In this document: positions 23,473 through 43,399 of the stretch, one piece after another | How positions within the stretch are numbered: position 1 is the stretch's first letter | Layout of the letters: each line of letters begins with the position of its first letter | NCBI GenBank assembly: GCA_021432655.1 | Contig: MU271279.1 | Location: 62,001 to 109,186, forward strand | Length of the DNA stretch: 47,186 nt | Direction: 5' to 3' | Source: Atractiella rhizophila | Taxonomy: Eukaryota | The notes under the pieces: generated by a model | Told to the model about the DNA's origin: nothing | Databases searched by the model: none | The model's input: the letters and a program-made list of their open reading frames with translations, nothing else | Translations under genes and position numbers: made by a program

Positions 23473-24875
23473 TCATTCACGCTCATACACGCTGTTTGGT
23501 GCATCTTCTCCATCAATGCTTACTGCGAGCAAGTTGTATTTCGACTTTCCTTTCACTCTTTCGAGCGAATCGTAGATGTACATTCCACATTCTGCGCCAA
23601 AATTTGATGCGTGTTTCTGAATCTCGCCCTTGTTGAAAGACAAACTTGAACGACCCACTGGCAGTGTGCAATCGCATAGCCTCTTGATTGGTTGTGAAGT
23701 TTTCTCATGCTTCCATGACATTTCAACTAATTCATGTGGTAGAAGGGTGACGCTTGACAAAGACTTGAAGGATAGTTCAGCTCAAAGAAAGTTTTGAAAG
23801 AGGCATCCTTGTCCTTTTTGGGCCCACATGTTGTCTTGCCCAAGGGTTCTAGTTCCCGACCTGGCACTTTCCTTTCTCTGGGACGCAGGGATATAAAGTG
23901 TCAAGCAGCTCAGTTCGTCAGTCGAACTACTTCCGACTTCGATACCCATTTGGAGATTTAGACTCCAACTTGAACATGCTTTGTAAGGTTTCCATCCAGC
24001 ATTTGGACGGTACATTAATGGCATGCTACTAGGTAGCTGCGTTTTCTGCGGTGAAATAATATCTCACTGTGGAGGTCAATTAATCCAACATAAAAATGTT
24101 GTTGGATTTTTGAGAGCCTATCCGAAAATGGAACCGCTTCACTGCCGTACGCAATCTCTCATCGAAACAGAAACAATGAACCTGAGCAGCTTAGATCTGG
24201 CTCGCAGCGTTAGACTCGGACAGTTTACCTTGCGAGCTCTGTCATGCAGTAGGTTACTGGACCTGTGACGCTGGGTTCCACTCCTACACGGCCTATTTTT
24301 CAGAATTAATCAAGAACGTTGTTCACTTGCACGTCGTCGAGCAGTTTATGGACTTTCAGGATCGAGGACAGGCCGATGTAATCGATGTGATCCTTGGCTT
24401 AGATGTGACAAAACCCAGCCTACTCAAAGAGAAGCAGCTGATTGCTACTGAGATGGAGGACACCAAACGAGAATATTCTCGCACAGGGTTCGAATCACCA
24501 TTCGACAAATATGAAACTTTCCGGGCTAGGCACCGTCTGTCATTTAGGCGACGACTCTGTCTAATCCCTCCGCTGTACTGGAACGATATCGAACGCCTAT
24601 ACCAGGAATGGCGAGATGGGGTATCGACACTTGATGAACTCAGATTTTCTTCTACCCGTGCAAGCAGCCAGCTCCACGTCGCCGATCTCAACTTGACAGT
24701 CAACAGCATCTTCGAGCCTCAGTCTTTGTGTGGCGGGACCCAGACGAGGGAAACCATCACAGGAGATCTCAAACTAATCATACCTCTCAACGGCAGGGTT
24801 CCCGACCTCAAGAATACCGCGAGGATGAGGAGATTCAAGATGGCTCTTTCTCGTACCGTCGTGCTCCGAGTGTGA
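23473..24875. pseudogene. Probable decayed F-box/LRR-like gene fragments
   Basis: Minus-strand TLLPHELVEM resembles an F-box start. Plus-strand FLRAYPKM and a 182-aa orphan ORF (24327-24875) are also present. No coherent spliced model could be built. Confidence 0.25.
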
Positions 24876-25931
24876 GAGTCCTACCTAGCAGTACGAGAGC
24901 TCAGAATGGACGGGAACGGTGGACCAGAAGGTGACTCCCCTGTCGCAGCTCTGCAGCCTCGATGCTTAAATTTGTATGGCAAGCGGCAGCCTCCTAGTTT
25001 TAGACGTTTAATCTAGTACTTCTAACTGTTTGATGACAGAGTCCCTAAGGGCACTTTTCTAGCGACATGTAGATCGCGTACAATTCTTTTTGAATATTGC
25101 GATAAAGACAAACAATACAGGTTGAAATATCAAACATTCACCTCCACATAGACCAGATGTCTACTTGTTCAACAATCCGCACCACGATTGGATAGGAGAC
25201 ATCCCATCATTTGCAAGTACTGAGAGTTTAGATGTTCACGGAACTGCAGCAGAGTATCGATCGAATGCACAATACTTGTACAACAGAACAACACTGTGCA
25301 AGATGCGAGAGACGGATAGCGATAAAGGTCACCCGTACACCTATCTTGCATCCATAGCTGCCACCCATCAGTAACTGAAAGAAGCAACGAATCACCACCT
25401 CTCGCTCCCACAATCCTCCTCCTGCGTCCCTGAGAAAGCTGAACCTGAGCAACTTAGGTCTGGCTAGCACAAGCGTTGGTTGATGAGTTGATGAAACTGG
25501 ATGACAGATGATGAGGACTGGAAAGAAGCGCCGCTTTTTTATTGACCTCACGCATTACACTGTGACTCACTCGCCCCCGACCGCGATTTGAAAATGCCCG
25601 CGCGTTTCCGAATTGTCACTCCGCTTTATCAGCCAGAACTCTCACGGGACCTCCTCCTTTCTTCGAATACCTTTTTTTACCAGGGACCAGGGATTTGGCA
25701 GGAGAACGCTTTCAGCCCGCGAGAGGGGCGAGATATCGAAGGTTCGTCAGGTTATCGCGACGCTTGCTTGTCGACTTATCAAATTGTGGTAAAGCTTGTT
25801 AATGCAAAGATACGGCACAGATCAAGTGGTGCTGGTTCTGGCTTATTTAGGACTGTCTGTCTCCTCCTTTTGCCCTCAACGATCAGTAGATTGATAACGA
25901 GCAGCAGGTTTCCGAGCGAGGAGTAGACATC

Positions 25932-28469
25932 ATGGGTCTCGAACCTCCACCACATCCAACCCATCGCGCAAACTCCTTCCAATCGATATCGGACCAACAA
26001 GTCTTCGAGGATGGACCGTCACAGATACCTGAGGTCGAATCCATGATATTTCACACTAGCAGACCTATCGGTTCCAGGTCAAGGTCGAAGAAACCCCTGA
26101 GAATCGTTCCTCCACAAGCTGGCCCAAATGTTGATGCCGAAGCCGGCGAGGAATCTCCTCTTCTCGCCGGTCATGGCGATCGTGACGGTGGAGATGCTGC
26201 AGCGAGAAGTAGGAGTGAGAGCTTGAAGGAGATGAATTCCAAGCCGTGGTATCGTCGTCCAGCGCCTGGATGGTTTCTCCCAGGTGCTACATCCAAGTCC
26301 ACCATCACGCCTTGGGATTAACAGGTTTTAGGTGCTTTGATAACTTCCTTGAGCATGGGTATCATCATTGGTCCAAAGTGCGTTATCCATTATCAGCTGT
26401 CACGATGCAATATTGATGACTTTCAGGTTGGAAGTATATCAGCGATTGGTTTGCTCAGAAATTCAAGAGTCTTCCCAAGCCATCGCCTTCAACGATTTCA
26501 ACCTGATCACTATCCCACATTCCCTCACGCAACAATCAGCACCGTGGTCTCGTCTGTTTGACTCTTCCAACTCTTCTCAATCAGAACCACCCTCAATCCC
26601 CTTCCCTGATAACTCTACACACGTTCCAATCATGATCCCTTCTGCACCAGATCCGCCTCCCGATTCGAGAGATCGTTGTCGCAAGGATACTGCGGTGCAG
26701 CAAGGCAAGTTATGTATTGAACTGAGTGAAGTCTAGCTTACGACGTGTTTACATAGCTGTCACCCAGTTGAACGTTCTTCTCACCCTTTCGATGGGTATT
26801 TTGAGCGCTCTCACCACCGGTTTCTGGGGAGGGTTCTCCGATAGGTACGGCCGAAAGAAAATTGTCATGCTCAGCGTACTGGGAATCCTTGTCAACGATG
26901 CCGTATTCTGGACCACTGTCACCTTCCGCAAGGTGCTCGGATATAAGTTTCTTATCGTAGGCCCACTCATTGAGGGCATTCTGGGAGGTCACACGTTTGT
27001 CTTTTCCATAACCCAATTCTGAAGATTTTCGTTGACGTTGGCTTTGGCAAAGAACGGCGAGCGCAGGAATGGGAGCCTACATTTCGGATTGTACTGGTGG
27101 CGGATCCAGAGCTCAGGTCTTCTCTGTCTTTATGGGTCTCTTCTTCGCCGGTTTTACTGTCGGGCCAGCTATTGGTTCTTTGAGTACGTTTCCCTTTCGC
27201 TGTAGACCATCCCACTTTCTGAACCCACAGGTCTACAGTACTCTCTCATCCGAAAGCGGATCTACTCTCGCCGTTCTACGTCTCCATGACGCTTCACACT
27301 GTGCAACTATTCTTCATCCTTTTTCTGCTGCCTGAGTCCTTGTCCATGGCTCGACAACTAGAGACTCGAGCTCTGTACAAGAAAAGTCAGGAGGAGAAGC
27401 AACTGCGCAGTTGGAAATGGAAAAGAATGTTTGGATTCTTGCGGCCCCTCAAATTGCTCCTCCCTCGACAGATAGGTGATCAAGAGGAGGAAGAGGCTGA
27501 CGGAAAGAGAATTTCTAGGACGGATCTGAAGCACGGAAAGAAAGATTGGAACCTGACCGTCCTCGCCTTCGCATATGCCCTGTTCTTGATGAGCATGGTC
27601 CGTAAACACTTCGCATCAATCGCTCTAACTGACGATCAGAATGCAGGGAATTTATAGCATCAAATCCATATACACTATGTCCAAGTTCGATTGGGGACCA
27701 GAGGAGATCGGATTCATGCTCTCTTTCCTCGGTTCCACTCGCGTCATTTCACTACTCATTGTCCTTCCTCTTGTCATCCGTATATTCCGCAAGCCACCTC
27801 CGATGCCACTGGCAACACCGACGACAACACCAGGACAGTCAGAAATTACCCTCAATGGAGAAGGAGATGAAGAATCGAGAGGAGACAGCGCGGTTCTCGT
27901 TGAAAATACCCCCGACTGGGAGGTGCATGCGAAAAAGCTCAAGATATTGCACGACTCTCGTGCGTCTCTGCTTCTCTTTACGTTTTAAAGATAACTAACA
28001 TTGGTTTGCAGACTTCGATCTTTTTCTCGCTCGCCTATCCATTCTTGTGGACTTCCTCTCGTACTTCCTCATCACGCTGTCACATAACCCTATGCAATTT
28101 CTCGGAGCATCGGCTATTCAATCCCTTGCTGGTGGTGGTTCTCCAGCTCTTCAATCGCTAGCTCTGTCGCTCGCTTCTCCCAATGACAGCGGGAAGATCC
28201 TCGCCGCCTTAGGAGTTTTGCAGGGTTTCTCATCCCAGGTCTTGGGGCCTCTGATCTATGGAGGCATCTATTCGGTCACCTTCTCCAAGTGGCCAGAAGC
28301 GGTTTTCGCCGTCGCTGCCAGCATTTATATGCTTGCTTTCCTCATCCTTAGTGGGGTCAGGTTACCCCCGAAGAAGGAGACGGAGAAGAAGGGGAAGAAG
28401 AAGGGGAAGAAGAGGGAGAGAGGGAGGAGCAGGACGAGGAGGGAAAGTGGAGTGGGAACTTGGGTGTAA
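25932..28469 (+). CDS. MFS transporter (SLC46/TetA-like), copy 1, multi-exon, apparently intact
   Basis: Motif A FWGGFSDRYGRK, plus AYISDCT..RAQVFSVFMG..GFTVGPAIGS and QVLGPLIYGGIYS. All introns close in frame. Confidence 0.9.
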
Positions 28470-29769
28470 TTGGTGGATGAGTGATACCCGTAGGAAGGTC
28501 GCTTTAGGACATTTCATAACCGGTTGTCTTGAGCGTCTCTTCAATATACAAGAACGTTCTTTTGCTCTTCTCTCTGCATTACCTTTCGATCTTCTTTGAT
28601 TTTGTACTATTTCCTTCAGCGCTTCAGCAATCATGCCCTTTTCATTCGCTAAATTCATCAATTTAGATACGAATTAACACTGCTGTACATTATGTTCAGT
28701 GGACAAGCTGTAATACATGCAATCTGCTTGATCTCTCTTCAAACAATCAATTAGTCGAATCTGTTTGTCATCGAGATATATTAGTATAAAGAATCCTGTT
28801 GCTCGAAAGATAAAAAATTCAAACTCGTTCAGGCCTTTTGGCCTTCTGAGGATGATAATAAGTGGTTAACTATATAGAATGTGCGAGGCTGATTTTTAGA
28901 GCGTAAGACATGATATGGTAAGGTTTTGCTGCTTGAGAGAGTGAGAAATGTACTTTCTACCACTTTGCACTAACAATCCCCAATCACTTATTAGTGAGTG
29001 CAAATGGTATAAACGAATATGTGATTCCCTGGATGGGAACATAGAGCAGTTCTTATAGCCTAAAATCTTCACTTTAGCTCGTCGAGTCCATAATGCAAAA
29101 CGAATATGAGATTCTGGAAAGAAAAGGAATGAAAACACAGCAAGCATACTTATAGTCGTAAACAGTAAAATCTCATGTTTGGCACGGCATCCCATATCGC
29201 AAAGCAAATAAAACTAACAAGTGGCATCCTCGGATTCCAACACTCAACATGTAATTTCGCAGCTCATGCTTACCATTTTAATCCGCTGCACGTGTTCATT
29301 CGTGCCTCCTTGAACTCCTCGTCCTACACAGTCTGCATTTAAGCCCCATGCGCGGACGAAAGAGAAGCGGCAGTCGAAGCAACGTTATCAACAACTGGGC
29401 CTTTTTAATTACCAGCGGGCGGTCCTGTGTGACAAGAACTGGTATCTCTTTGCATGAACAACAGTAGCTTCAAAGTCGTCGAAACATTCTGCCTACTTGA
29501 ACTCGTAGTCTACAGCAATATGTTCCTGTTCCACTGTTCGACGTGACTATCGGATCTAAAGCTTCAGCCGAATCGTCCCAGTGATTATCCAACGTAAAAC
29601 AGTAGTCGTCTGCTTCTTGCATTTTGGTATGAGTCCCAGGAAGGCGAACAGCCTTGAATGGAAAACCGACTTAACTCAATGGATGTTTCGGATCCAAAGC
29701 ACAACAAATTGGTCAAACAAATCTGAACATTCGAACACAAGACTGAGCACACACTTAATTGTCGTTTCG

Positions 29770-32700
29770 ATATGCATTCGAGATCGCTCAACTCGCCGAA
29801 TTTGAGTGCATGATCGAATCCGCTTTCGACCCACTCGCGCAAGGAGTCCGATGATGATCCGCATCCGACTCTTGATGGTAGGTATAAAGTTCGGAATGGT
29901 CCTGAGGAAGAATGTATCGGTCACATTTCTACTTCGATCCAACTCCGACTACTGGAAATCGAGCGGAACGAAATCGTTAATGGGACGAGAAGACCGATTT
30001 CTGTCGATAGAATCGCTGGATTGACGACGTGACAAGACAGAAACTACTTCGAAAGTTCAGTAACAGCGGAGAGAACAAAGACAGAGAGCATACTCGAACA
30101 TCTCCGATGCATGCCTTCCACACGCAACTCTCGGTATGGTTACGATGGTCGCTTCGCTCTCCTCGTTTCTGCCTCTGACCAGATTTGGGTGGTCACATGT
30201 CCTCGGGATCAGCTCCTTTGTTCGAGCCACATGGCGATGCGAACTTGTCGATTTGTTGTTCACGAGGTATCGCTGACACTATAATGATAGCGTAGAATCA
30301 TTGGATGGGATCGGTGAACAATAATGGATCCACATCTTCTGACCTCGATCTGGATGCCAAAGAACACGAATGCTGTTCAAACCCTCAGAGAGAGAAGCGA
30401 TTCACCCCATGCATTCGGAGAAGATGGAGTCGATAAGAGCAGGTCGAGTTTCCGTCGATCCAATCCTGGATCAACGAGGATGCACAAGAAGAGGGTAGTG
30501 GACATCATCAGCAGAATGATACACGAATCATCGTCCCGACGCGGCAGACAGTACGAAAGACCAAAGCTGAGTACAGTACTCGCATAAAAACTTCTTCCAC
30601 CATTGTCAGCTCCAGCCTGACACAACCCATAGATGTCCTTCCTAATGGACGTAAACGACCTTCGGACGAACCTCGCCGATGAAACCATGTGACTGCTCTC
30701 TAACGAAGCACTTGATCTTCGGATGGCCATGCAGGAAAGACATCGCTGACGCTCGAAACGTCAGGCCGGACCCTCCCCTTTTCCCCTGAGATGGACAGTT
30801 CGTGCTAGAACAGATGCAGACGGCGACAAGGATGATGCCCAAGTCTCCATCATACTCCGATGGCTTCTACTCTTTGGAGCATCGATCCCCTGCGTACCAC
30901 AAGGCGTGCTTTGTACTTAGATCACCTCCCCACGAGGGTGGCAAGCTAAACCGTAAGAACCCATTTAACGCATGAAGAGCCGTTCTCCAAGAAGGCAACT
31001 CCGTCAAGCCACCTAGCCACGTCCCCATCAGACTCGAACGCCGAAATCTCCGCAACCATAGAAGCTAACCACAAACCGCAGTCAGGTCCAGCGATTGGAC
31101 CTGTTTGAACCTTGGTCCACTGCGATACGGACCGTCCAGAACACTTCCTCGACTCCATAAACGTCGAGTATCGTCCTCAAGCGTAACCTCGTAGACTGAT
31201 GGGTATCGTTCCACTTCTGGACGCACAGCATGCCCTAAAAAGGGGCGACGACTTCATCATTACCGCACACTTGAGCGTAGTACAGACCTCGCTAATGAAG
31301 TTTCTTGTAATCCCACCTATTCGGCCCGGCGCCACGTATTCCTCTCAACAGCAGCTGTTGACGTTGAGGGGAGAAACTAGCAAGTTCGCATACCTGGGCC
31401 CTCGCCTTCCGTAAAAATGCTTTCCATTCTCCTCGCAACTCCATCCTGGAGCAAACCAGGAGGTCCCCTTCTGGAGGTTAAAGAAGGACGGACGGAACTG
31501 AATCTCCCCCCCTTGTTCTACAGCCACATGAGTTTTGACTAAGTCGCTTTCTTGAAAGTGTAGAAGACACCGATGTGTCAGCGTATCGCAGGGACGTGAA
31601 GTTCGAACATCGTCCAATGCCAGCACGGTTGACGGTAAAACGAAACGTCCATCCCAGATCTCCCTCTATCCGCCCTATCTCTCCCTGACATCCTGATCGC
31701 TCCGAGGTATCAGAATGTCAAAGAAATCGTCAGGCTACAGGTGACAAATTCTCTCAGTTTCATGATAGCCTCTTTCAGAGTAGAACTTATTTGCGAAGAA
31801 TACTAGCCGACTTAGCCTTCTACTATCGTCCGCCTAAAAGGATCCAAGAATCACGCATCGCCTAACCGACAGGGACAAATGCCAACGAAGATGACATCTA
31901 ACTTTGCTCGGAGTAATAGCTTCAAAGAAACCCTATTGCTCAGCCATGATCGCACACTGCAGCGAGACAACCAAATACCCTGATGTGCGTCATAACAGGA
32001 GTTATTCCATGAAACTTTTCGGAGGAGAGACCTGGATCTGGACTCGCATGTTCCCATGCGTAGACCATAATCTTCCTCACTATCCGACGGCAACTCTCAA
32101 CGCCTCATACCAAAGCTACAAACGGACTCAGAAGTCGAGGAGCAGACATCGAACCATGTTGAAAAGAGTATACCATTGTCGCTCCCACATTCACGCCCGG
32201 ATCGTGTGCATACGGAATGCTCGTCATGGTAGAAATCGGATGTTTGTCACACCAATTCTTCAGTGCAAGCGACCAAGGAATTCCATGGTCTTGGTCGTGG
32301 CGTGATCTTGCGGACGTCTACGTCAAGGTGCCCGGGAGGATAGCTGCTCTGACCCCGTCCAAGATGTGATGGTGCCTAGGATGATGAGCTGCATTCCGCC
32401 TACAATCATATGATCTGAACGCAACATCGACGACGCCGAGAAACGGATAGGAGATCCCTGAAGACTCGGACAACTCTCGATGGACACCATGTATCAAATC
32501 CCAACGTCAGCCCGGGTCTATGATCTCCAATACACGCAGGTACCGTACGACCTTCCGTACGTAGATGTCCCTCTTGCACGATGGAAAGCCAATGAGCTCA
32601 AAAAGGAGATGCATGGAAGCTATCCCGTACACTGAGACGGAAGACACAATTTCATTTGGAATCGCGAGTCGAAGCCGGATAACCGATGAGGTGCGCGAGA

Positions 32701-33424
32701 CGTTGAGGCCATATACGAAGATCGCACTTGCGATAAAAGACGGAGGAGGAAGCGATCGATGAAGTCTCCGTTGGAGAGGGGGTAGCCGATGCAGGTAAGG
32801 ATCAACCGACGGGAGGGAGCGTATGGAGCCCGAAGAAGACGGAGGAGAGGTCGACTGAGTGCTAGAAGAGGCAGAGGATATGTTGGAGAGCAACGACGAG
32901 TAGTGGGTGCGGATGTGGCTGAATTCGTCCTCGATCGCATGGAGGTAGCGGGGGTGGAGAGGAAGGATGTGGAGCTGTTGTTGAAGTCTGGCATGGGCAA
33001 CGGTTTGTTCTTCGGTGCCTCCGATGGCGAGGCATTGCACTCCCTCTCCTTCGCTCGATCAACTGAAGCCTTGTGCCAGCCCAACTTGTGGCCACAAAGG
33101 AAGCAGTTGGTTCCCTCTCCATCCAGTGCTCCATTATCCCCAACCCACACCGGACACCGACACTCCTTGCTCTTGCAGTGCTCCAAAGCATGTCCCGTCG
33201 CTGCCATCGCCTTCGAAATCTCCACCGCACTTAGCGAAACTCGCCTGTGGTGCCAGTAGAGCTCATGCTCGCAAAGGTCGCAACGAGTGCCAGTGATGTT
33301 GGCTTGAGCTGGAGCTTCATAGACGGGGACAGTTGCATCCTGATTCACGGCAGTAAGAGAGATTGTTGGAGAGGTCGGGAGGAGGAGTTGGAGGTGCGGT
33401 GGGAGGGATCAGCTTGGAAATCAT
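29770..33424 (-). pseudogene. Degenerate copy of the zinc-module/arrestin gene
   Basis: The 5' part is nearly identical to copy 2 but has a 1-nt deletion at ~32896 (caacgacgag vs caacgagcgag). The 3' part is riddled with indels and carries an insertion at ~30335-31065. Confidence 0.75.
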
Positions 33425-33873
33425 GATGATCGCTTTCTCGTTCGCTCGTGCTGCTGCCAAGTGATGATGAGCAAACTGCAGACAATATTCAGCACCGATG
33501 CAGGCTTTATGACGGGGAGAACTTGACAAGCCGATTACGCACCCACATAAGCAGTCAATAGTAAACGTAGAGCTTGAAGCTTGATTTTGAACGCGTATCA
33601 AGGTGAACCTGTAACACCCCCCAACTCGATCGTTCGGCTTCTCTTGCTCAGATCTCGTTCCTGTGAACGGATTTCTGGGCCCTGCAGCCGTCTTTATAGA
33701 AAAATGAGCCGCGAAATCGCTGGCCGTCGCACCGTCGCAGCTGCAGAATAGATATAAGATATACTTCTGGGGACCACGCGGACCGAGCATTAGCGAACCT
33801 CTCGGTTGGGCAGATCGAGCCAACTGATAGCTTGAGATGGGTCGCCTTTGAAAAGGTTTGAAAGTTTCGGAGA

Positions 33874-33898
33874 NNNNNNNNNNNNNNNNNNNNNNNNN
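33874..33898. other. Assembly gap (25 N) at the junction of the two copies
   Basis: Run of 25 n. Confidence 1.
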
Positions 33899-35135
33899 GG
33901 GAAACCATCGCAGGAGGTCTCAATCTAATCACACCTCTCAAGGGCAGCGTTCTCGACCTCAAGAGTACCGCGAGGATGAGGAGGTTCAAGATGGTTCTTT
34001 CTCGTACCGTCGTGCTCCAAGTGTGACTGTTCTACTACCTAGCAGTACGAGAGCTCAGAATGGACGGGAACGGAGGGCCAGAAGGTGAACTCCCCTGTGG
34101 CAGCTCAGCTACCAGCCTCGATGCTTGAATTTGTATGGCAAGCGGCAAGCCTCCTAGTTTAGAAGTGGAATCCAGTACTTGTAACTGTTTGATGACAGAG
34201 TCACTAAAGGCACTTTTCTAGCGACATGTAGATCGCGTACAATTTTTTTTTGAATATTGCGATAAAGACAAACAATACAGGTTGAAATATCAAACATTCA
34301 CCTTCACCTGCACATAGACCAGATGTCTACTTGTTCAACAATCCGCACCACGATTGGATAGGAGACATCCCATCATTTGCAAGTACTGAGAGTTTAGATG
34401 TTCACGTAACTGCAGCAGAGTATCGATCGAATGCACAATACTTGTACAATAGAACACTGTGCAAGATGCGAGAGACGCGTAGCGATAAAGGTCACCCGTA
34501 CACCTATCTTGCATCCATAGCTGCCACCCATTGGTAACTGAAAGAAGCCAACGAGTCACCACCTCCCGCTCCGTCGCACAATCCTCCTCCTCTGTCCCTG
34601 AGAAGGCTGAACTTGAGCAACTTAGGTCTGGCTAGCACAAGCTTTGCGTTGGTTGTTGAGTTGATGAAACTGGATGACAGATGATGAGGACTGGAAAGAA
34701 GCGCCGCTTTTTCATTGACCTCACGCATTACACTGTGACTCACTCGCCCCCGACCGTGATTTGAAAATGCCCGCGCGTTTCCGAATTGTCACTCCGCTTT
34801 ATCAGCCAGAACTCTCACGGGACCTCCTCCTTTCTTCGAATACCTTTTTTTACCAGGGACCAGGGATTTGGCAGGAGAACGCTTTCAGCCCGCGAGAGGG
34901 GCAGCGATAGGAGCGAGATATCGAAGGTTCGTCAGGTTATCGCGACGCTTGCTTGTCGACTTATCAAATTGTGGTAAAGCTTGTTAAAGTGACGCAAAGA
35001 TACGGCACAGATCAAGTGGTGCTGGTTCTGGCTTATTTAGGACTGTCTGTTTGCTCCTTTTGCCCTCAACGATCAGTAGATTGATAAGGAGCAGCAGGTT
35101 TTCGAGCGAGGGATCGGGAGAGAACAGTTGACATC

Positions 35136-37676
35136 ATGGGTCTCGAACCTCCACCACATCCAACCCATCGCGCAAACTCCTTCCAATCGATATCGGACCA
35201 ACAAGTCTTCGAGGATGGACCGTCACAGATACCTGAGGTCGAATCCATGATATTTCACACCAGCAGACCCATCGGTTCCAGGTCAAGGTCGAAGAAACCC
35301 CTGAGAATCATTCCTCCTCAAGCTGGCCCAAATGTTGATGCCGAAGCCGGCGAGGAATCTCCTCTTCTCGCCGGTCATGGCGATCGTGACGGTGGAGATG
35401 CTGCAGCGAGAAGTAGGAGTGAGAGCTTGAAGGAGATGAATTCCAAGCCGTGGTATCGTCGTCCAGCGCCTGGATGGTTTCTCCCAGGTGCTACATCCAA
35501 GTCCACCATCACGCCTTGGGATTAACAGGTTTTAGGTGCTTTGATAACTTCCTTGAGCATGGGTATCATCATTGGTCCAAAGTGCGTTATCCATTATCAG
35601 CTGTCACGATGCAATATTGACGACTTTTCAGGTTGGAAGTATATCAGCGATTGGTTTGCTCAGAAATTCAAGAGTCTTCCCAAGCCATCGCCTTCAACGA
35701 TTTCGACCTGATCACTATCCCACATTCCCTCACGCAACAATCAGCACCATGGTCTCGTCTATTCTCCTCTTCCGACTCTTCTCAATCAGAACCACCCTCA
35801 ATCCCCTTCCCTGATAACTCTACACACGTTCCAATCATGATCCCTTCTGCACCAGATCCGCCTCCCGATTCGAGAGATCGTTGTCGCAAGGATACTGCGG
35901 TGCAGCAAGGCAAGTTATGTATTGAACTGAGTGAAGTCTAGCTTACGCCGTGTTTACATAGCTGTCACCCAGTTGAGCGTTCTTCTCACCCTTTCGATGG
36001 GTGTTTTGAGCGCTCTCACCACCGGTTTCTGGGGAGGATTCTCCGATAGGTACGGCCGCAAGAAAATTGTCATGCTCAGCGTACTGGGAATCCTTGTGAA
36101 CGATGCCGTATTCTGGACCACTGTAACCTACCGCAAGGTGCTCGGATATAAGTTTCTTATCGTCGGCCCAGTCGTTGAGGGCATTCTGGGAGGTCACACG
36201 TTCGTCTTTCCCATGACCCAATTCTGAAGATTTTCGTTGATGTTGGCATTAATCGCAAAGAACGGCGAGCGCAGGAATGGGAGCCTACATCTCGGATTGT
36301 ACAGGTGGCGGATCCAGAGCTCAGATATTCTCTGTCTTCATGGGCCTCTTCTTCGCTGGCCTTACTGTTGGGCCAGCCATTGGGTCTTTGAGTGCGTTTC
36401 CCTTCCACTGTGGGGCATCTCACTTTCTAAACCATCACGATACAGTCCTTTCTCATCCCAAAGCGAATCTACTCTCACCGTTCTACGTCTCCATGACGCT
36501 TCACACATTCCAACTACTATTCATCCTTTTTTTGCTGCCTGAGTCCTTGTCCATGGCTCGACAACTAGAGACTCGAGCTTTGTATAAGAAGAATCAGGAA
36601 GAGAAGCAACTTCGAAGCTGGAAGTGGAAAAGAATGTTTGGATTCTTGCAACCTCTAAAACTGCTCCTGCCTCGACGGATAGGTGATCAGGAAGAAGAAG
36701 AGGCTGGAGGAAAGAGGATTTCCAGGACGGATCTGAAGTACGGAAAGAAAGATTGGAATCTGACTGTCCTTGCCTTCGCATATGCACTCTTCTTGATGAG
36801 CATGGTAGGTATACACTTTGCATCATTTGCTCCCACTGACGATCAGAATGCAGGGAATTTACAGCATCAAATCCATATACACTATGTCCAAGTTCAATTG
36901 GGGACCAGAGGAAATCGGATTCATGCTATCCTTCCTCGCTTCCACTCGAGTCGTCTCACTACTCATCGTGCTTCCTCTCGTCATCCGTATCTTCCGCAAG
37001 CCCCCTCCCATGCCACCAACAACACCGACTACAACACCAGGACAGTCAGAAATTACCATCAACGGAGAAGGAGATGAAGAATCGAGAGGAGACAGCGCTG
37101 TTCTTGTTGAAAATACCCCCGATTGGGAGATACATGCGAAAAAGCTCAAGATATTGCACGACTCTCGTGCGTTTCTGCTTCCCTTTAAAGTCTAAGGTAG
37201 AACTAATGTTTATTACAGACTTCGATCTATTTCTCGCTCGCCTATCTCTTCTTGTGGACTTCCTCTCTTACTTCCTCATCACGCTCTCACATAACCCTGT
37301 GCAATTTTTGGGAGCAACGGCTATCCAATCCCTTGCTGGCGGTGGTTCTCCTGCTCTTCAATCGCTAGCTCTGTCGCTCGCTTCTCCCAACGACAGCGGG
37401 AAGGTCCTCGCCGCCTTAGGAGTTTTACAGGGTTTCTCATCCCAGGTCTTGGGGCCTCTGATCTATGGAGGTATCTATTCGGTCACCTTCTCCAAGTGGC
37501 CAGAGGCGGTTTTCGCCGTCGCTGCGAGCATTTATATGCTTGCTTTCCTCGTCCTGAGTGGGGTCAGGTTGCCCCCGAAGAAGGAGACGACGAAGAAAGA
37601 GAAGAAGAAGGGGAAGAAGAGGGAGAGAGGGAGGAGCAGGACGAGGAGGGAAAGTGGAGTGGGAACTTGGGTGTAA
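35136..37676 (+). CDS. MFS transporter (SLC46/TetA-like), copy 2, apparently intact
   Basis: Same exon structure and motifs as copy 1. The visible differences are mostly synonymous or conservative. Confidence 0.9.
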
Positions 37677-39073
37677 TTGGTGGATGAGTGATACCCGTAG
37701 GAAGGTCGCTTTAGGACATTTCATAACCGGTTGTCTTGAGCGTCTCTTCAATATACAAGAACGTTCTTTTGCTTTTCTATCTGCATTACCTTTCGATCTT
37801 CTTTGATTTTGTACTATTTCCTTCAGCGCTTCAGCAATCATGCCCTTTTCATTCGCTAAATTCATCAATTTAGATACGAATTAACACTGCTGTACATTAT
37901 GTTCAGTGGACAAGCTGTAATACATGCAATCTGCTTGATCTCTCTTCAAAACAATCAATTAGTCGAATCTGTTTGTCATCGAGATATATTAGTATAAAGA
38001 ATCCTGTTGCTCGAAAGATAAAAAATTCAAACTCGTTCAGGCCTTTTGGCCTTTTGAGGATGATAATAAGTGGTTAACTATATAGAATGTGCTCAACGCC
38101 TGTGCGAAGCTGATTTTTAGAGCGTAAGACATGGTACGGTAAGGTTTTGCTGCTTGAGAGCATGAAAGCTCCTAAATTCGAATCCTTTGACACCGAGTGT
38201 GCTAGTGTTGAGAAATATCTCATCCTTGTTTCCATTTTCACAGTTCCCATAAAGCAAATTGAATTTTGAGGTTCCATGGGTGGGAACATTAGAGCAGTTC
38301 TTATAGCGTAAAACTTCAGTTTTGCTCGCAGTCCCTTATCCCAAAGAAATATATGTCTCCTCTGGTTCGAAGTCCTGAACGCATTCATGGTAAAGGTTTT
38401 AATCTGTCAAATCTCATGTGTGTCCTAGCTCATATTGTCATACAGCCAAGAAAACTCAAGTTGGCAGGAGTCTCCTCAGCATCAACATGTATAATTTCGC
38501 AGCCTTTCGAAAGTCATATTCCATTTGGAATTCACCGGTGGACGTGTTCATTCTGCCTCCTTGGACTGCTCGCCTACGCAGTCTGGATTTATGCCCTCAA
38601 ACTTGCGGCGGACGAAAGAGCAGCGGAATTCGGAAGCAATGTTATCAACAACTGGGTCCTTTTTGCTTACCCAGCGGGGGGTGCCGTCGGTGTGCCTACA
38701 ACAAGAACTGGTTAAGTATGCTCTTTGCATTGCTCAAGAGTAGCTTCAAAGTCATTCGAATGCATTTTCGTACTTTCGCTCGTAGTTCTACAACATTTTC
38801 CTGTTCCACTGTTCGACGTGACTATCCAGTTTGAGTCCCTACGTGCGCTTAAGACGGTCATGATCCCAGTGAGTAATCCATGAGGTAAAACAGTAGTCGT
38901 CTACTTCTTCTATTGCATTTTGGTATGAGTCCGCGGAATGCGCAACGAGCTTGAATGGAAAACCGACTTAACTCAATAGTATTTTTTTCGGATCCAAAGC
39001 ACAACAAAATTGGTACAACAAATCTGAACAGATTCGAAAACACGACTGAACACAATATTTAATTTTCGTTTGG

Positions 39074-41772
39074 TTATGGATTCGTGATCCTCAACTCGCC
39101 GAATTTGAGTGCATGATCGAATCCGCTTTCTTCCCACTCGCGCAAGGAGTGATGATGATCGTCATCCGACTCTTGATGGTAGGTATAACGGTCGGAATGG
39201 TCCGAAGAATGATCGGTCACATTCGTCCTTCGATCCAACTCCGACACTGGCGATCGAGCGGCGAAATCTTTAATGGGGACGAGGAGACCGATTTCTGTCG
39301 ATAGAATCGCTGGATTGACGACGTGACAAGAGAGAAAGTACTTCGAAAGTGCATCAGTAACAGTGCGGAGAGAACGAAGACAGAGAGCGTACTCGAACTT
39401 CTCCGTTGCATGCCTTCCACACGCAGATATCCTCTTCTTGGACGATGACCCGTCCTTCGACCCTCCAGATGGTCGCTTCCTGTGCTCTGACAAGCTCGTC
39501 TTCTGTCCTCTGGACCAGACTCTTGACTCTGAGCGTGGGTCGTACACTTTCCTTTCCCGTTATGAGGTTTTTGAGAATGATGCGACGGGACAAGGCGATG
39601 CGAAGCTTGGATTTGATTTTTGACATCGAGTCGTTGTTTAGATGAGACGAGGGTGGAAAAGAAAGCGAGAATCGATAATGGATGAGGAGCGGTTTGCAAG
39701 AATGAATCTCGTAGGCGATCTAGTGACTCTCATCAGACAGGTACGGCGAAAGAAAGGAAGAAGTGAGCACAAACCTCAGCATCGACGATTGGAGCTGTTT
39801 GACCTTCCACTGCGATACGAACGGGAACGCTTGCTCGAGTCGATAGACGCGAGTAGGTCCAGTTCCCGTCATATCCCACTTCTGGATGCACAGCATGCGC
39901 TAGCAAGGGGTCGGGAACATCAACCGCACGTTTGAGGGTTACAGGAATGATCGTCCTGCCGTAAGGGGCACGTTGAACAGCGGCTACATGGATATAGCAA
40001 GTTGGCGTACCTGTCCTTCGCCTTTAAAAGTTCTTTCCTCTCCCCTCTCAGCTCCATTCTGTAGTGAACCTGGATGTCGTTGTGGAGGAAAGAAGGAGGG
40101 ACGGAATGAAGCTCGCCTTGACAGGCACATGTGACTATCGCTCTGAAAAAAAGGCACTATGTGAGCGTGGAAGGAGGTGCAGTAAAGTAATGGCGCACGG
40201 GACTGTAAAACGAAAAGTCCATTCCCGATCCTCTGGCCCGTCTCCCCTCACATCTGACGTTCGAGGTAGAATGGACTTCAGGACGGTAACAAAAGGATGG
40301 TGCTCAGGTCTAGCGCATCATACTCCGACTTAGGCTTTTACTCTTTCCAAAAGGAGAAAGACTCACGGATCACCTGAGACGGTACAAATGCCGATTAAGA
40401 TGACTTCTAACTTCTTGTAGTTCGCTAAAGAGACCTTATTGCTCACCAATCGCACACGACAGTCAATCTTCTGCCCTGGGGAAACCGGAGTTATTTTGAG
40501 AGGAGGAGAGACCTGGATCTGGACTCGCATGTTCCCATGCGTCGACCATTTCTTCCTCACTCTCCTCCTGCTTCTCTCCGTGCCTTCCGAACTCAAACGC
40601 TCAGAAGTTAGCAGAGATTGAGTGTGGTCCTCCTCCTCTTCACTCTCGGAGTGGTAGAACTCGTCATGGTAGGAATCGGAGAACTCTTCGTGGAAGTGCC
40701 CAAGGTGTTGTTGGTGTTGGTGTGGGTGATGTTGATGGTGGTGCGGGGGAGGATATGTGCCGTGATGGTGATGGTGAGGATGATGTGGTGGATGGCTAGA
40801 CCTGTGATGAAGGGAACTGAGGTGGAGGCGAGGGAAGGAGATTCCTGAGGAGTGGGACGATTCTGGATAACCAATCAGCTCCGGATGGAGCGCGGGATGA
40901 TTGCGATACACGGAGGTAGCGTTCGATCTTCCGCTCGATGTTGTTGACGGTGGATAGCCTATGAGCTCAGGATGGAGAGCTGGAAGGTTCTCGTACACTG
41001 AGACGGAAGAAGAAGAGGAAGCGATCGAAGCGGGATAACCGATGAGGTTCGGGAGAGGAGGGTCGAGGATCGCACTTGCGATTGAGGCGGAAGAGGAAGC
41101 AATGGATGAAGTCTCCGTTGGAGAGGCGGGGTATCCGATGAGTTGAGGATCAACCGACGGGAGGGAGCGTATGGAGCCCGAAGAAGACGGAGGAGAGGTC
41201 GACTGAGTGCTAGAAGAGGCAGAGGATATGTTGGAGAGCAACGAGCGAGTAGTGGGTGCGGATGTGGCTGAATTCGTCCTCGATCGCATGGAGGTAGCGG
41301 GGGTGGAGAGGAAGGATGTGGAGCTGTTGTTGAAGTCTGGCATGGGCAACGGTTTGTTCTTCGGTGCATCCGATGGCGAGGCATTGCACTCCCTCTCCTT
41401 CGCTCGATCAACTGAAGCCTTGTGCCAGCCCAACTTGTGGCCACAAAGGAAGCAGTTGGTTCCCTCTCCATCCAGTGCTCCATTATCCCCAACCCACACC
41501 GGACACCGACACTCCTTGCTCTTGCAGTGCTCCAAAGCATGTCCCGTCGCTGCCATCGCCTTCGAAATCTCCACCGCACTTAGCGAAACTCGCCTGTGGT
41601 GCCAGTAGAGCTCATGCTCGCAAAGGTCGCAACGAGTGCCAGTGATGTTGGCTTGAGCTGGAGCTTCATAGACCGGACAGTTGCATCCTGATTCACGGCA
41701 GTAAGAGAGATTGTTGGAGAGGTCGGGAGGAGGAGTTGGAGGTGCGGTGGGAGGGATCAGCTTGGAAATCAT
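39074..41772 (-). CDS. Arrestin-fold protein with N-terminal tandem Cys/His modules, PxLIGYP repeats and His-rich tract (7 exons, ~790 aa)
   Basis: Exon 1 is 41772-40367. Introns at approximately 40310-40366, 40143-40200, 39956-40010, 39882-39929, 39719-39773 and 39341-39392 give an uninterrupted frame. It includes SPGQKIDCRVRL..LEVILIGICTV..EWTFRFTVP..VPPSF..IQVHYRMELRGER (arrestin-N pattern) and ends FGELRITNP-TAA. Confidence 0.75.
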
Positions 41773-42503
41773 GATGATCGCTTTCTCGTTCGCTCGTGCT
41801 GCTGCCAAGTGATGATGAGCAAACTGCAGACAATATTCAGCACCGATGCAGGCTTTATGACGGGGAGAACTTGACAAGCCGATTACGCACCCACATAAGC
41901 AGTCAATAGTAAACGTAGAGCTTGAAGCTTGATTTTGAACGCGTATCAAGGTGAACCTGTAACACCCCCAACTCGATCGTTCGGCTTCTCTTGCTCAGAT
42001 CTCGTTCCTGTGAACGGATTTCTGGCCCTGCAGCCGTCTTTATAGAAAATGAGCCGCGAAATCGCTGGCCGTCGCACCGTCGCAGCTGCAGAATAGATAT
42101 AAGATATACTTCTGGGGACCACGCGGACCGAGCATTAGCGAACCTCTCGGTTGGGCAGATCGAGCCAACTGATAGCTTGAGATGGGTCGCCTTTGAAAAG
42201 GTTTCAAAGTTTCGGAGAGCAAGCGGAGAGCGGTGAGTTTGAAGGTGATATAAAAAGGAGAACGAGGAGGGACCTCCGCGACCCTGAGCTGTGGCGGACG
42301 GACGGTCAAAGTGACAGATGGAACAACAGCACATTAGGGTAACCCAGAGAGGGTATTGTTTGTATTCACTATATTATATCAGCAGTGCAATTGCTGTTGC
42401 AGTTGGATTGTTGTGGTAAACAGGTCCCAGAAGGCTGGAGGAATTAAGCTTGGCATTGGCATGTGAGTCGTCATGTGAAATGAAGGAGGAGGAAAACAAA
42501 AAG

Positions 42504-42584: not shown

Positions 42585-42739
42585 GTATATTATAACAGAC
42601 AACAAGGTACACCAAAAAGGAAGCCCTGCAACAAACCCAAAAAAAAAATGCAGACGCGGCGTGCGTACCTGATTCACCTGTCCGTCTCGCCATCTTCAAG
42701 CGACCATCTCTGCAAGTCATCGTTTCTCGAAGTTCCAAC

Positions 42740-43399
42740 ATGGCGAACGCAAACATTGATGGTGAGTGCTTATATCTTTTTCAGAGCCTTCATGCTGATT
42801 ATCGATCGGGAATAGAGATAGCGAAACAATTCACCGATTTCTATTACAACACCTTTGACACGGACAGGACCGGCCTGGGGAATCTCTACAGGGATAACTC
42901 CATGCTTACATGGGAGTCGGAGCAGATTCAGGGTGCTTCTAACATCCTCACCAAGCTTACAGTGAGTCCCTACACCTAGTCAGCGGAAATTTGGATGCGT
43001 CAAGGTCGCGATGACGGCTTGAGAAGTCCTTGTTGTTTGATCAGTCACAAAAATGGTCGCTGATGGGGTTGATGCCCACAGTCTCTTCCTTTCCAGAAGG
43101 TCCAGCACAAAATCACCACCCTCGATGCCCAGCCCTCAAACCCTGGCATTGCGTCTCTCATCGTCCTTGTAACTGGTCAACTACTCGTTCGTACCGTTCC
43201 TCCTTAATTTCGCCCTCCTGATAATGTGCCAAGGTGGATGATGGCGCGCACCCAATGAACTACTCACAAATCTTCCAGCTTATCCCGACCGAAGATCAGA
43301 AGAGTTATTTTATATTCAATGATGTCTTTCGGTTCGTACCCTCCGTGTAACTTTCCATCGGTACTCATGACATGGCGTTTTAGGCTAGTGTATGGTTGA
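42740..43399 (+). CDS. NTF2: Nuclear transport factor 2, 5 exons
   Basis: [76 protein letters not shown]. Confidence 0.95.

Follow-up and report, generated by a model that had tools for sequence, protein, structure and literature searches.

Can an arrestin-fold adaptor be coupled to its downstream machinery by a zinc module of its own, as a replacement for the PY motifs and Rsp5 of the classical fungal adaptors? This question is raised by a single spliced gene of Atractiella rhizophila, a root-associated basidiomycete of the Pucciniomycotina, which occupies positions 39074-41772 on the minus strand of the window, that is, of the whole 47,186-nucleotide stretch of DNA analysed here (GenBank assembly GCA_021432655.1, contig MU271279.1, positions 62,001 to 109,186 of the forward strand). 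The choice of the transporters and receptors that are removed from the cell surface falls to arrestin-clan adaptors, and the fungal ones are thought to bring in Rsp5 via PY motifs. The protein encoded at this locus, named P0001 below, combines two N-terminal Cys/His modules with a C-terminal body of predicted arrestin fold, and we lean towards the view that it is an alpha-arrestin-like adaptor carrying its own zinc effector module. The order of parts given in the original prediction, with two Cys/His modules followed by a serine/threonine (S/T) linker, four PxLIGYP repeats, a His-rich and then an acidic tract and finally an arrestin-like body, is the one seen in P0001 between residues 49 and 774.

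One spliced and expressed gene

A single expressed protein is encoded at the locus. Under the name BT69DRAFT_1348991 [Atractiella rhizophila], NCBI lists P0001 as a hypothetical protein of 831 amino acids, which was found with coding exon 1 as the query and is 100% identical; residues are numbered as in P0001, and numbering from the ATG at 41772 runs 24 lower. The start codon (ATG, 41772-41770) and the stop codon (TAA, 39076-39074) lie on the minus strand where they had been placed originally, and joining the six coding exons listed below gives 807 amino acids that equal residues 25-831 of P0001 exactly, with the reading frame intact throughout. The RNA evidence consists of contigs from four public runs placed on positions 38900-42300 of the window; the kind of library behind X11 is not recorded. 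A single X11 contig of 2174 nt carries all five coding joints, each with GT..AG on the minus strand and with skips of 57, 56, 55, 55 and 52 nt. Five canonical spliced joints in one contig are possible only if it derives from cDNA, and therefore the exon with the zinc modules and the arrestin exons belong to one transcript. Moreover, X5 shows two of the five joints again, and the metatranscriptome X2 shows one.

40367..41772, minus strand: coding exon 1, with both zinc modules, the entire disordered linker and the arrestin body's first strands; the X11 contig covers 40367-41733 and continues into exon 2
40199..40309, minus strand: coding exon 2, preceded by the intron 40310-40366 (GTGAGT..TAG); joints 40309/40367 and 40142/40199 are in X11, the latter also in X5
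40011..40142, minus strand: coding exon 3, preceded by the intron 40143-40198; contains the invariant C535-x-C537 and P545
39775..39955, minus strand: coding exon 4, preceded by the intron 39956-40010, GT..AG with the cut shifted by 1; X11 joint 39954/40010
39393..39719, minus strand: coding exon 5, preceded by the intron 39720-39774; joint in X11, X5 and X2
39074..39340, minus strand: coding exon 6 with the stop codon 39076-39074, preceded by the intron 39341-39392; X11 joint 39340/39393
41824..41875, minus strand: 5' intron of the database model; the X2 joint 41823/41876 brings the upstream ATG 41896-41894 into frame and adds 24 non-conserved residues

The original prediction had joined an open reading frame (ORF) of 528 amino acids to six further exons and had assumed one gene rather than two. 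The splicing into one gene stands, since the X11 contig runs through all six coding exons, but the number of exons has to be corrected, as both the X11 joints and the exon join give five further exons. The 528-amino-acid ORF itself is a mechanical one: it begins at a TTG within an open frame of 543 codons (40363-41994). From the ATG, the coding part of exon 1 comprises 469 codons. These data also bear on the possibility of an artefact, in which the gene model has misfused two neighbouring genes or describes a decaying lineage-specific gene. A decayed copy 8.3 kb away and an assembly gap at the junction of the duplication speak for such an explanation. However, one contig with five canonical joints spans the region from the zinc-module exon to the last exon, the frame is intact, the splice junctions fall inside blocks conserved among homologues, and the same fusion occurs in another fungal class (P0040, described below). 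In our view the artefact is already refuted, and its probability is practically negligible.

Two forms of the 5' end were found. P0001 begins with MWVRNRL and continues with FAHHH across the 5' intron joint supported by X2, whereas X11 skips 41825-41903 instead, with non-canonical ends and 2 extra letters, which removes the upstream ATG. The start codon therefore lies at 41896 or at 41772, and the product has 831 or 807 amino acids. A further intron of 58 nt was observed at 42086-42143 on the minus strand, and the X11 contig extends past 42292; either the 5' untranslated region is longer than 500 nt, or an upstream exon set is present. Of 1367 exon 1 positions (40367-41733), 16 do not agree between the X11 contig and the window, so the contig stems from a different allele or strain. 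Coverage of the gene by the metatranscriptome runs X1 and X2 is partial, with some pieces only 90-95% alike and loose ends at the His-repeat. Among the database proteins, P0002 is a mis-framed model of 250 amino acids that is 80% identical and looks like a variant of the P0001 gene from another source.

The arrestin-like body and the paired Cys/His modules

The two conserved ends of the protein are encoded at the following positions.

39248..40551, minus strand: arrestin-fold body (predicted), residues 432-774, exons 1-6; N lobe about 432-580, C lobe about 598-774
40297-40299, 40127-40129, 40121-40123 and 40082-40084, minus strand: N-lobe residues H497, C535, C537 and H550, from the alignment
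41599..41700, minus strand: putative zinc module 1, residues 49-82, C49 C54 C56 (Y59) C72 C75 H77 H82, pattern CX4CXC-X15-CX2CXHX4H
41422..41526, minus strand: putative zinc module 2, residues 107-141, C107 C112 C114 (W117) C131 C134 H136 H141

The body was modelled with AlphaFold2 on residues 431-831 from an alignment of 28 sequences (A1). The model, with a mean predicted local distance difference test (pLDDT) of 82.6 and a predicted template modelling score (pTM) of 0.73, contains two beta lobes (model residues 4-149 and 170-336) followed by a disordered tail. With this model, Foldseek gave 253 matches in the PDB at E<=1e-3; those listed were all arrestin-clan structures, led by Vps26 (5f0m_B, best E 4.1e-9), TXNIP and the beta- and visual arrestins. 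Alignment of the Foldseek top 1000 chains with VIA-align gave Z 14.1 and a root-mean-square deviation (rmsd) of 4.8 Å over 266 aligned residues between model residues 2..343 and residues 11..359 of visual arrestin 4zrg, so that both beta-sandwich lobes of the predicted structure superpose on solved arrestins. The nearest clusters in the ESM Atlas were basidiomycete proteins labelled 'Arrestin-like N-terminal domain', with a feature score of 0.94. The arrestin fold proposed originally for the C-terminal part, about 345 residues, is thus borne out by the agreement of AlphaFold2, Foldseek and VIA-align.

The position of this body within the arrestin clan was considered as well. DSSP assigned no helix of at least 4 residues before model residue 233, that is, no helix in the N lobe, and the lack of the N-lobe helix I is what separates alpha-arrestins and Vps26 from beta- and visual arrestins. 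The retromer subunit Vps26 and VPS26C gave the best Foldseek E-values and VIA Z of 13.2-13.5 over both lobes, with Vps26B at 13.5, tied within 1 with the arrestins; because of this tie between Vps26 and true arrestins, the structure does not assign the body of P0001 to Vps26. Vps26 is also a stand-alone protein of about 300 residues (Foldseek targets 282-306), whereas P0001 has 831 amino acids with a 430-residue N-terminal extension. The identification of the body as Vps26 proper was rejected, as Pfam Vps26 (PF03643) matched neither P0001 nor any of 20 body-bearing homologues. With the fungal alpha-arrestins, or arrestin-related trafficking adaptors (ARTs; yeast Art1-Art10, Bul1/2 and Rim8, Cryptococcus Ali1-4), P0001 shares the two-lobe fold without N-lobe helix and the long disordered extensions, and the nearest feature-space neighbours of its body are basidiomycete and ascomycete arrestin-like clusters. 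It differs from them in its invariant residues H497, C535-x-C537 and P545, which are specific to the P0001 family, and to our knowledge no described ART carries an N-terminal pair of zinc clusters.

A further difference from the ARTs is the weakness of the Pfam signal. On the whole of P0001 nothing but IBR at E 4.4 was reported, and single exon ORFs had no matches. Among the 20 body-bearing homologues, three matched Arrestin_C (PF02752) at 21.5, 16.0 and 15.7 bits, below the cutoff of 27.7, and none matched Arrestin_N (PF00339), so that the gathering score was reached for neither domain. On the predicted structure, the body is an alpha-arrestin/Vps26-like two-lobe arrestin fold too diverged for Pfam. 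The locus would accordingly show that arrestin-fold proteins invisible to Pfam exist. Few basidiomycete arrestins are detectable by sequence methods; in Cryptococcus, simple sequence analysis is reported to find just four arrestin-domain proteins, none of them required for Rim signalling (PMC12345238).

Within the family, the body is marked by H497 (27/27 sequences), C535 and C537 (24/24) and P545 (24/24), together with a mostly conserved His near 550 that was judged by eye in the alignment. H497, C535, C537 and this His may form an extra metal site of the Cys2His2 type that is not found in classical arrestins.

The N-terminal modules follow the general pattern CX4CXC-(aromatic at +3)-Xn-CX2CX[H/C]X4H, with Y, W or F three residues past the CxC. 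All seven ligand columns of module 1 are invariant in 18/18 aligned sequences, and in 10/10, and six ligand columns of module 2 are invariant in 18/18, the sixth ligand being H or C. Numbered from the ATG at 41772, the invariant columns in the 18 sequences are C25 C30 C32 P33 C48 C51 H53 H58 and C83 K84 C88 C90 C107 C110 H117. Such invariance of the Cys/His ligand columns means that the pattern is not due to chance. The closest described counterpart is the PCAF_N domain's zinc region in the histone acetyltransferases GCN5 and PCAF. In mouse GCN5 this region is, according to a review, a binuclear Zn2Cys5His2 cluster formed by C107, C113, C115, C142, C145, H147 and H151, with C145 bridging and a conserved Trp118 three residues after the CxC (PMC8586995). 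The same review notes that GCN5/PCAF have one extra residue between Cys1 and Cys2 relative to the family logo, so that the family consensus, one residue shorter there, reads CX4CXC-aromatic...CX2CXH, the same as in the modules of P0001 (PMC8586995). Both modules thus show the seven-ligand Cys-Cys-Cys...Cys-Cys-His-His order of the PCAF_N zinc region, including the aromatic residue three after the CxC (PF06466; 7by1).

Database and structure searches led in the same direction. Pfam PCAF_N (PF06466) matched two of 20 homologues with zinc modules, P0032 at 24.4 bits (cutoff 24) and P0035 below it at 13.1 bits, and these matches were confined to profile positions 24-84 of 251 (24-82 in P0032). In a VIA scan of 48,161 chains, made independently of Foldseek, just 6 chains reached Z>=2, and rank 2 was the PCAF N-terminal domain of GCN5 (7by1_B; Z 2.3, rmsd 3.8 Å, 46 aligned residues, 22% identity). 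The structure search of the ESM Atlas returned KAT2A in row 1 and, in row 2, a mainly basidiomycete 'KAT2B family' cluster of 115 amino acids, 22% of whose 282 members carry PCAF_N. Compared with the complete PCAF N-terminal domain, P0001 has the zinc region only, twice in tandem, and neither the connecting coiled coil nor the MSL3-like domain; module 2 is followed by the S/T-rich disordered linker instead.

Several results count against a relationship with PCAF_N. The similarity scores are all weak and P0001 itself stays under every threshold: Pfam found PCAF_N neither in P0001 nor in its N-terminal 146 amino acids, the AlphaFold2 model of the N-terminal part reached a mean pLDDT of just 68.5, and of its 12 Foldseek matches at E<=10 none lay at E<=1e-3. 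The Z of 2.3 for 7by1_B is tied with rubredoxin, and GCN5 was not retrieved from the PDB sequences by profile or single-sequence searches (alignments A1, A2 and A3; phmmer with P0032). The last His is spaced by X4 in the modules of P0001 and by X3 in GCN5, as given in the review (PMC8586995). The dimerisation domain of plant ZF-HD proteins (ZF-HD_dimer, PF04770) matches about as weakly, in 2/20 homologues, whose scores of 19.5 and 12.9 bits stay under the cutoff of 27. This domain agrees with CX2CX[C/H]X4H, which is the module's second half, and it also occupies Atlas rows 8-9, while a match for the first half, CX4CXC, was not reported and the ZF-HD context is plant-specific. Several partly independent lines, each weak alone, nevertheless point the same way, and we regard it as probable that the modules are homologous to the PCAF_N zinc region. 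Most probably, each of them contains a binuclear zinc cluster of the kind known from GCN5/PCAF.

Family architecture and a possible route to ubiquitin

An exhaustive phmmer search over 1.84 billion representatives found 38 proteins at E<=1e-3, of which 16 also reached E<=1e-10; a word-indexed protein search returned P0001 alone with the body as query and one other protein with the N-terminal profile. Hidden Markov models from the trimmed alignments were run over 40 proteins, the same sequences from which they were built, so that the resulting layouts are not an independent detection. The zinc pair and the body occur together in 10/40 (P0001, P0006, P0008, the truncated P0009, P0010, P0016, P0017, P0018, P0029 and P0040). 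The zinc pair occurs without the body in 11/40, mostly proteins of 116-183 amino acids, and the body without the zinc pair in 19/40. One of the fused proteins, the hypothetical protein P0040, comes from the Microbotryomycete Leucosporidium creatinivorum, and its fusion in a second class implies that the combination predates the split of two Pucciniomycotina classes; the taxonomic range is based on two named proteins and on Atlas cluster labels. The arrangement of zinc pair, disordered linker and arrestin body is therefore conserved, recurring in a quarter of the family proteins and in at least two classes. The body acts like a mobile module. In P0011, one of the 19 proteins without the zinc pair, it stands behind a DUF3431 domain; in P0004 and P0005 it is followed by a conserved C-terminal extension of about 120 amino acids that both have in common and in which Pfam found no match.

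P0001 thus belongs to an uncharacterised basidiomycete family, and the original suspicion that its domain combination is that of an undescribed family is supported, as the combination was found neither in Pfam nor in the full-text literature searches. No paper contained both 'arrestin' and 'PCAF_N' in its full text, subscription journals and supplements being outside this search, and most of the listed 'PCAF_N' matches were unrelated uses of the string. Likewise, none of the titles listed for alpha-arrestin, Basidiomycota, Rsp5 and PY concerned the P0001 family, and none for Atractiella rhizophila concerned the P0001 gene.

The occurrence of the zinc pair without the body in 11/40 proteins, where it acts independently of an arrestin, also suits a different role, namely that of a nuclear, chromatin or signalling scaffold whose PCAF_N/ZF-HD-like zinc pair binds a chromatin or transcription partner, with no part in trafficking. 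The nearest named relatives of the modules belong to histone acetyltransferases and plant ZF-HD transcription factors and would fit it, as would the basic stretch RSRRRVRKK (424-432) of P0001, which we take to resemble a nuclear localisation signal. However, this stretch is not conserved in the homologues, Pfam found no DNA-binding domain, and the fungal arrestin-clan proteins of known role act at membranes. A nuclear role is consequently judged highly unlikely.

In the adaptor function that we favour for P0001, the arrestin body would engage a membrane protein or a membrane surface, as arrestin-clan adaptors do, and the zinc pair would be the effector or docking end that couples the body to downstream machinery, most plausibly the ubiquitin system. 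The pair would thereby take the place held by PY motifs and Rsp5 in classical ARTs. The suggested link to ubiquitin draws on the precedent of GCN5, whose ubiquitin ligase (E3) activity is abolished on losing the zinc region according to the review (PMC8586995), and on the missing PY motifs of P0001. A regular-expression scan found no [PL]PxY anywhere in P0001, which upholds the absence of a canonical PPxY noted in the original prediction. The nearest motif is PPSF at 545-548, which lies inside the folded N lobe beside the invariant CxC and is probably a structural loop.

Other observations weigh against such a function. Pfam Arrestin_N, Arrestin_C and Vps26 are not matched in P0001 even at E<=10, and an arrestin fold alone does not establish a role in trafficking. 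Whether the zinc region alone has E3 activity is not known, as the review puts it (PMC8586995). Furthermore, seven relatives (P0003-P0006, P0023, P0025 and P0040) carry PP[ST]Y at the P545 loop, and the C-termini of P0006, P0008 and P0010 share the acidic PxY-like motif L.[LF]PPDF..E[FV]P.D.E..P.Y (alignment columns 1501-1543), which may be a PY-like docking site. With PP[ST]Y and PxY-like ends in the relatives, use of Rsp5 may persist in the family at large. The acidic PxY-like C-terminal motif is lacking in P0001, and PPP.FE[DE]A-like motifs were noticed at the C-termini of P0040 and P0029.

The same motifs in the relatives are the basis for regarding P0001 as a classical ART that acts through Rsp5/Nedd4 by motifs that are non-canonical or supplied by a partner, for instance the PPSF loop or PxLIGYP, with the zinc pair only regulating or localising it. 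The alpha-arrestin-like clusters among the feature-space neighbours of the body agree with this, and the action of ARTs through PY motifs and Rsp5 is established (PMC9105457). P0001 itself, however, has no [PL]PxY and holds its PPSF within the folded N lobe, and the feature kept in all 10 fused proteins is the zinc pair and not any PY motif. Moreover, LIGYP fits no WW-ligand consensus that we know of. Dependence on Rsp5 is therefore considered unlikely in the case of P0001. An adaptor that works without Rsp5, as the original prediction suggested, is possible.

A bolder form of the effector function would make these proteins self-contained 'arrestin-E3' adaptors, in which the tandem Zn2Cys5His2 modules recruit a ubiquitin-conjugating enzyme (E2) or act as a minimal ubiquitin ligase like the GCN5/PCAF zinc region, and cargo would be ubiquitinated without PY motifs or Rsp5. 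By analogy with GCN5 this can be imagined, but E3-like activity is speculative and we think the proposal decidedly unlikely. If it were true, this ligase class would have its smallest natural form in the stand-alone two-module basidiomycete proteins of 116-183 amino acids. One conserved group of arrestin-like proteins carries a tandem zinc module probably related to the sole part of GCN5/PCAF that is reported as necessary for E3 activity (PMC8586995). The locus thus bears on two questions, that of the PCAF_N zinc region as a minimal ligase module and that of arrestin adaptors wired to ubiquitination without Rsp5, and its conserved design may be an unusual way of connecting the sorting of membrane proteins with ubiquitin. 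Even if both answers are negative, the two domains are a new family pair for domain databases.

Disordered tracts, tandem copy and neighbouring genes

The region between the modules and the body, and the tail behind the body, comprise the following parts.

41152..41367, minus strand: S/T-rich disordered linker, residues 160-231; 32/72 residues S/T, not alignable between homologues
40861..41151, minus strand: four xPxLIGYP repeats, DPQLIGYPA, LPNLIGYPA, HPELIGYPP and HPELIGYPE, with GYP at 237, 269, 296 and 325
40585..40824, minus strand: His-rich tract 341-392 (21/52 His), then acidic tract 393-420 (10/28 D/E)
39077..39247, minus strand: disordered acidic/His C-terminal tail, residues 775-831; pLDDT <50 for model residues 349-401

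The whole disordered linker region of about 290 residues is lineage-specific and not conserved. LIGYP was found in none of the 39 other family proteins, with a single GYPA in two, and the other nine proteins that combine zinc pair and body have neither the repeats nor the poly-His tract; as far as the compared sequences go, both are specific to P0001. When the repeats were set against known sorting motifs, an ALIX/PalA-type YPx(n)L/I motif was rejected, as just one of the four fits YPxxI, and so were a dileucine motif and a clathrin box, whose consensus no repeat fits.

The protein had originally been called possibly metal-responsive, that is, an adaptor whose poly-His tract and Cys/His modules sense the availability of metal. 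The 21 His residues in 52 fit this idea, as do the His/Gln-rich tract ahead of the body in a closer relative, P0007, and the invariant H497, C535 and C537, which could make a further metal site in the body. However, the other nine fused proteins have no such tract, and in P0001 it lies on short-period DNA repeats (40704-40795) of the kind typical of slippage. The Cys/His modules look like structural binuclear zinc clusters of the GCN5/PCAF_N type and not like sensors, in line with the structural nature of invariant multi-Cys clusters of this type in GCN5 (PMC8586995). The claim of metal response is thus not upheld, and we give it a very remote chance.

Units 24748-33873 and 33899-42218 make up a tandem duplication whose period is about 9.15 kb. 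An N run, 33874-33898, lies exactly where they meet, and the second of them contains the gene. The second copy of the gene is recorded as follows.

29789..33475, minus strand: tandem copy 2, decayed as assembled, 8.3 kb from the P0001 gene

Identity between the units is mosaic, reaching 98-100% over the first 1.0 kb or so next to the gap (5' region and zinc modules), mostly 30-75% over linker and body, 83-91% over the last exon and 88.8% over 5.5 kb downstream; about 0.5 kb of copy 2 (about 30200-30700) is nearly unalignable. Residues 8-200 of copy 2 are 99-100% identical to P0001, but they lie in two frames with two 1-nt frame shifts. In-frame stops occur in its linker and body remnants, one degenerate ELIGFP repeat remains, and the end of the tail, SLREW.ESGFDHALKFGEL, is retained. 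Copy 2 is a pseudogene as assembled. Given the gap and the near-identical kilobase, an effect of assembly or of gene conversion is possible; the duplication may be a true one with recent gene conversion, or in part due to assembly.

A convergent neighbour at about 35088-37700 on the plus strand encodes an MFS_1 transporter (E 7.5e-12 on the ORF 36840-37676), and its duplicate lies at about 25900-28500, so that the duplication took in both the transporter and the arrestin gene. A transporter next door to an adaptor of arrestin type is suggestive, although adjacency in a fungus is weak evidence. Upstream of the gene, at 42596-42979 on the plus strand, lies a gene for an NTF2-domain protein (PF02136, E 6.8e-12).

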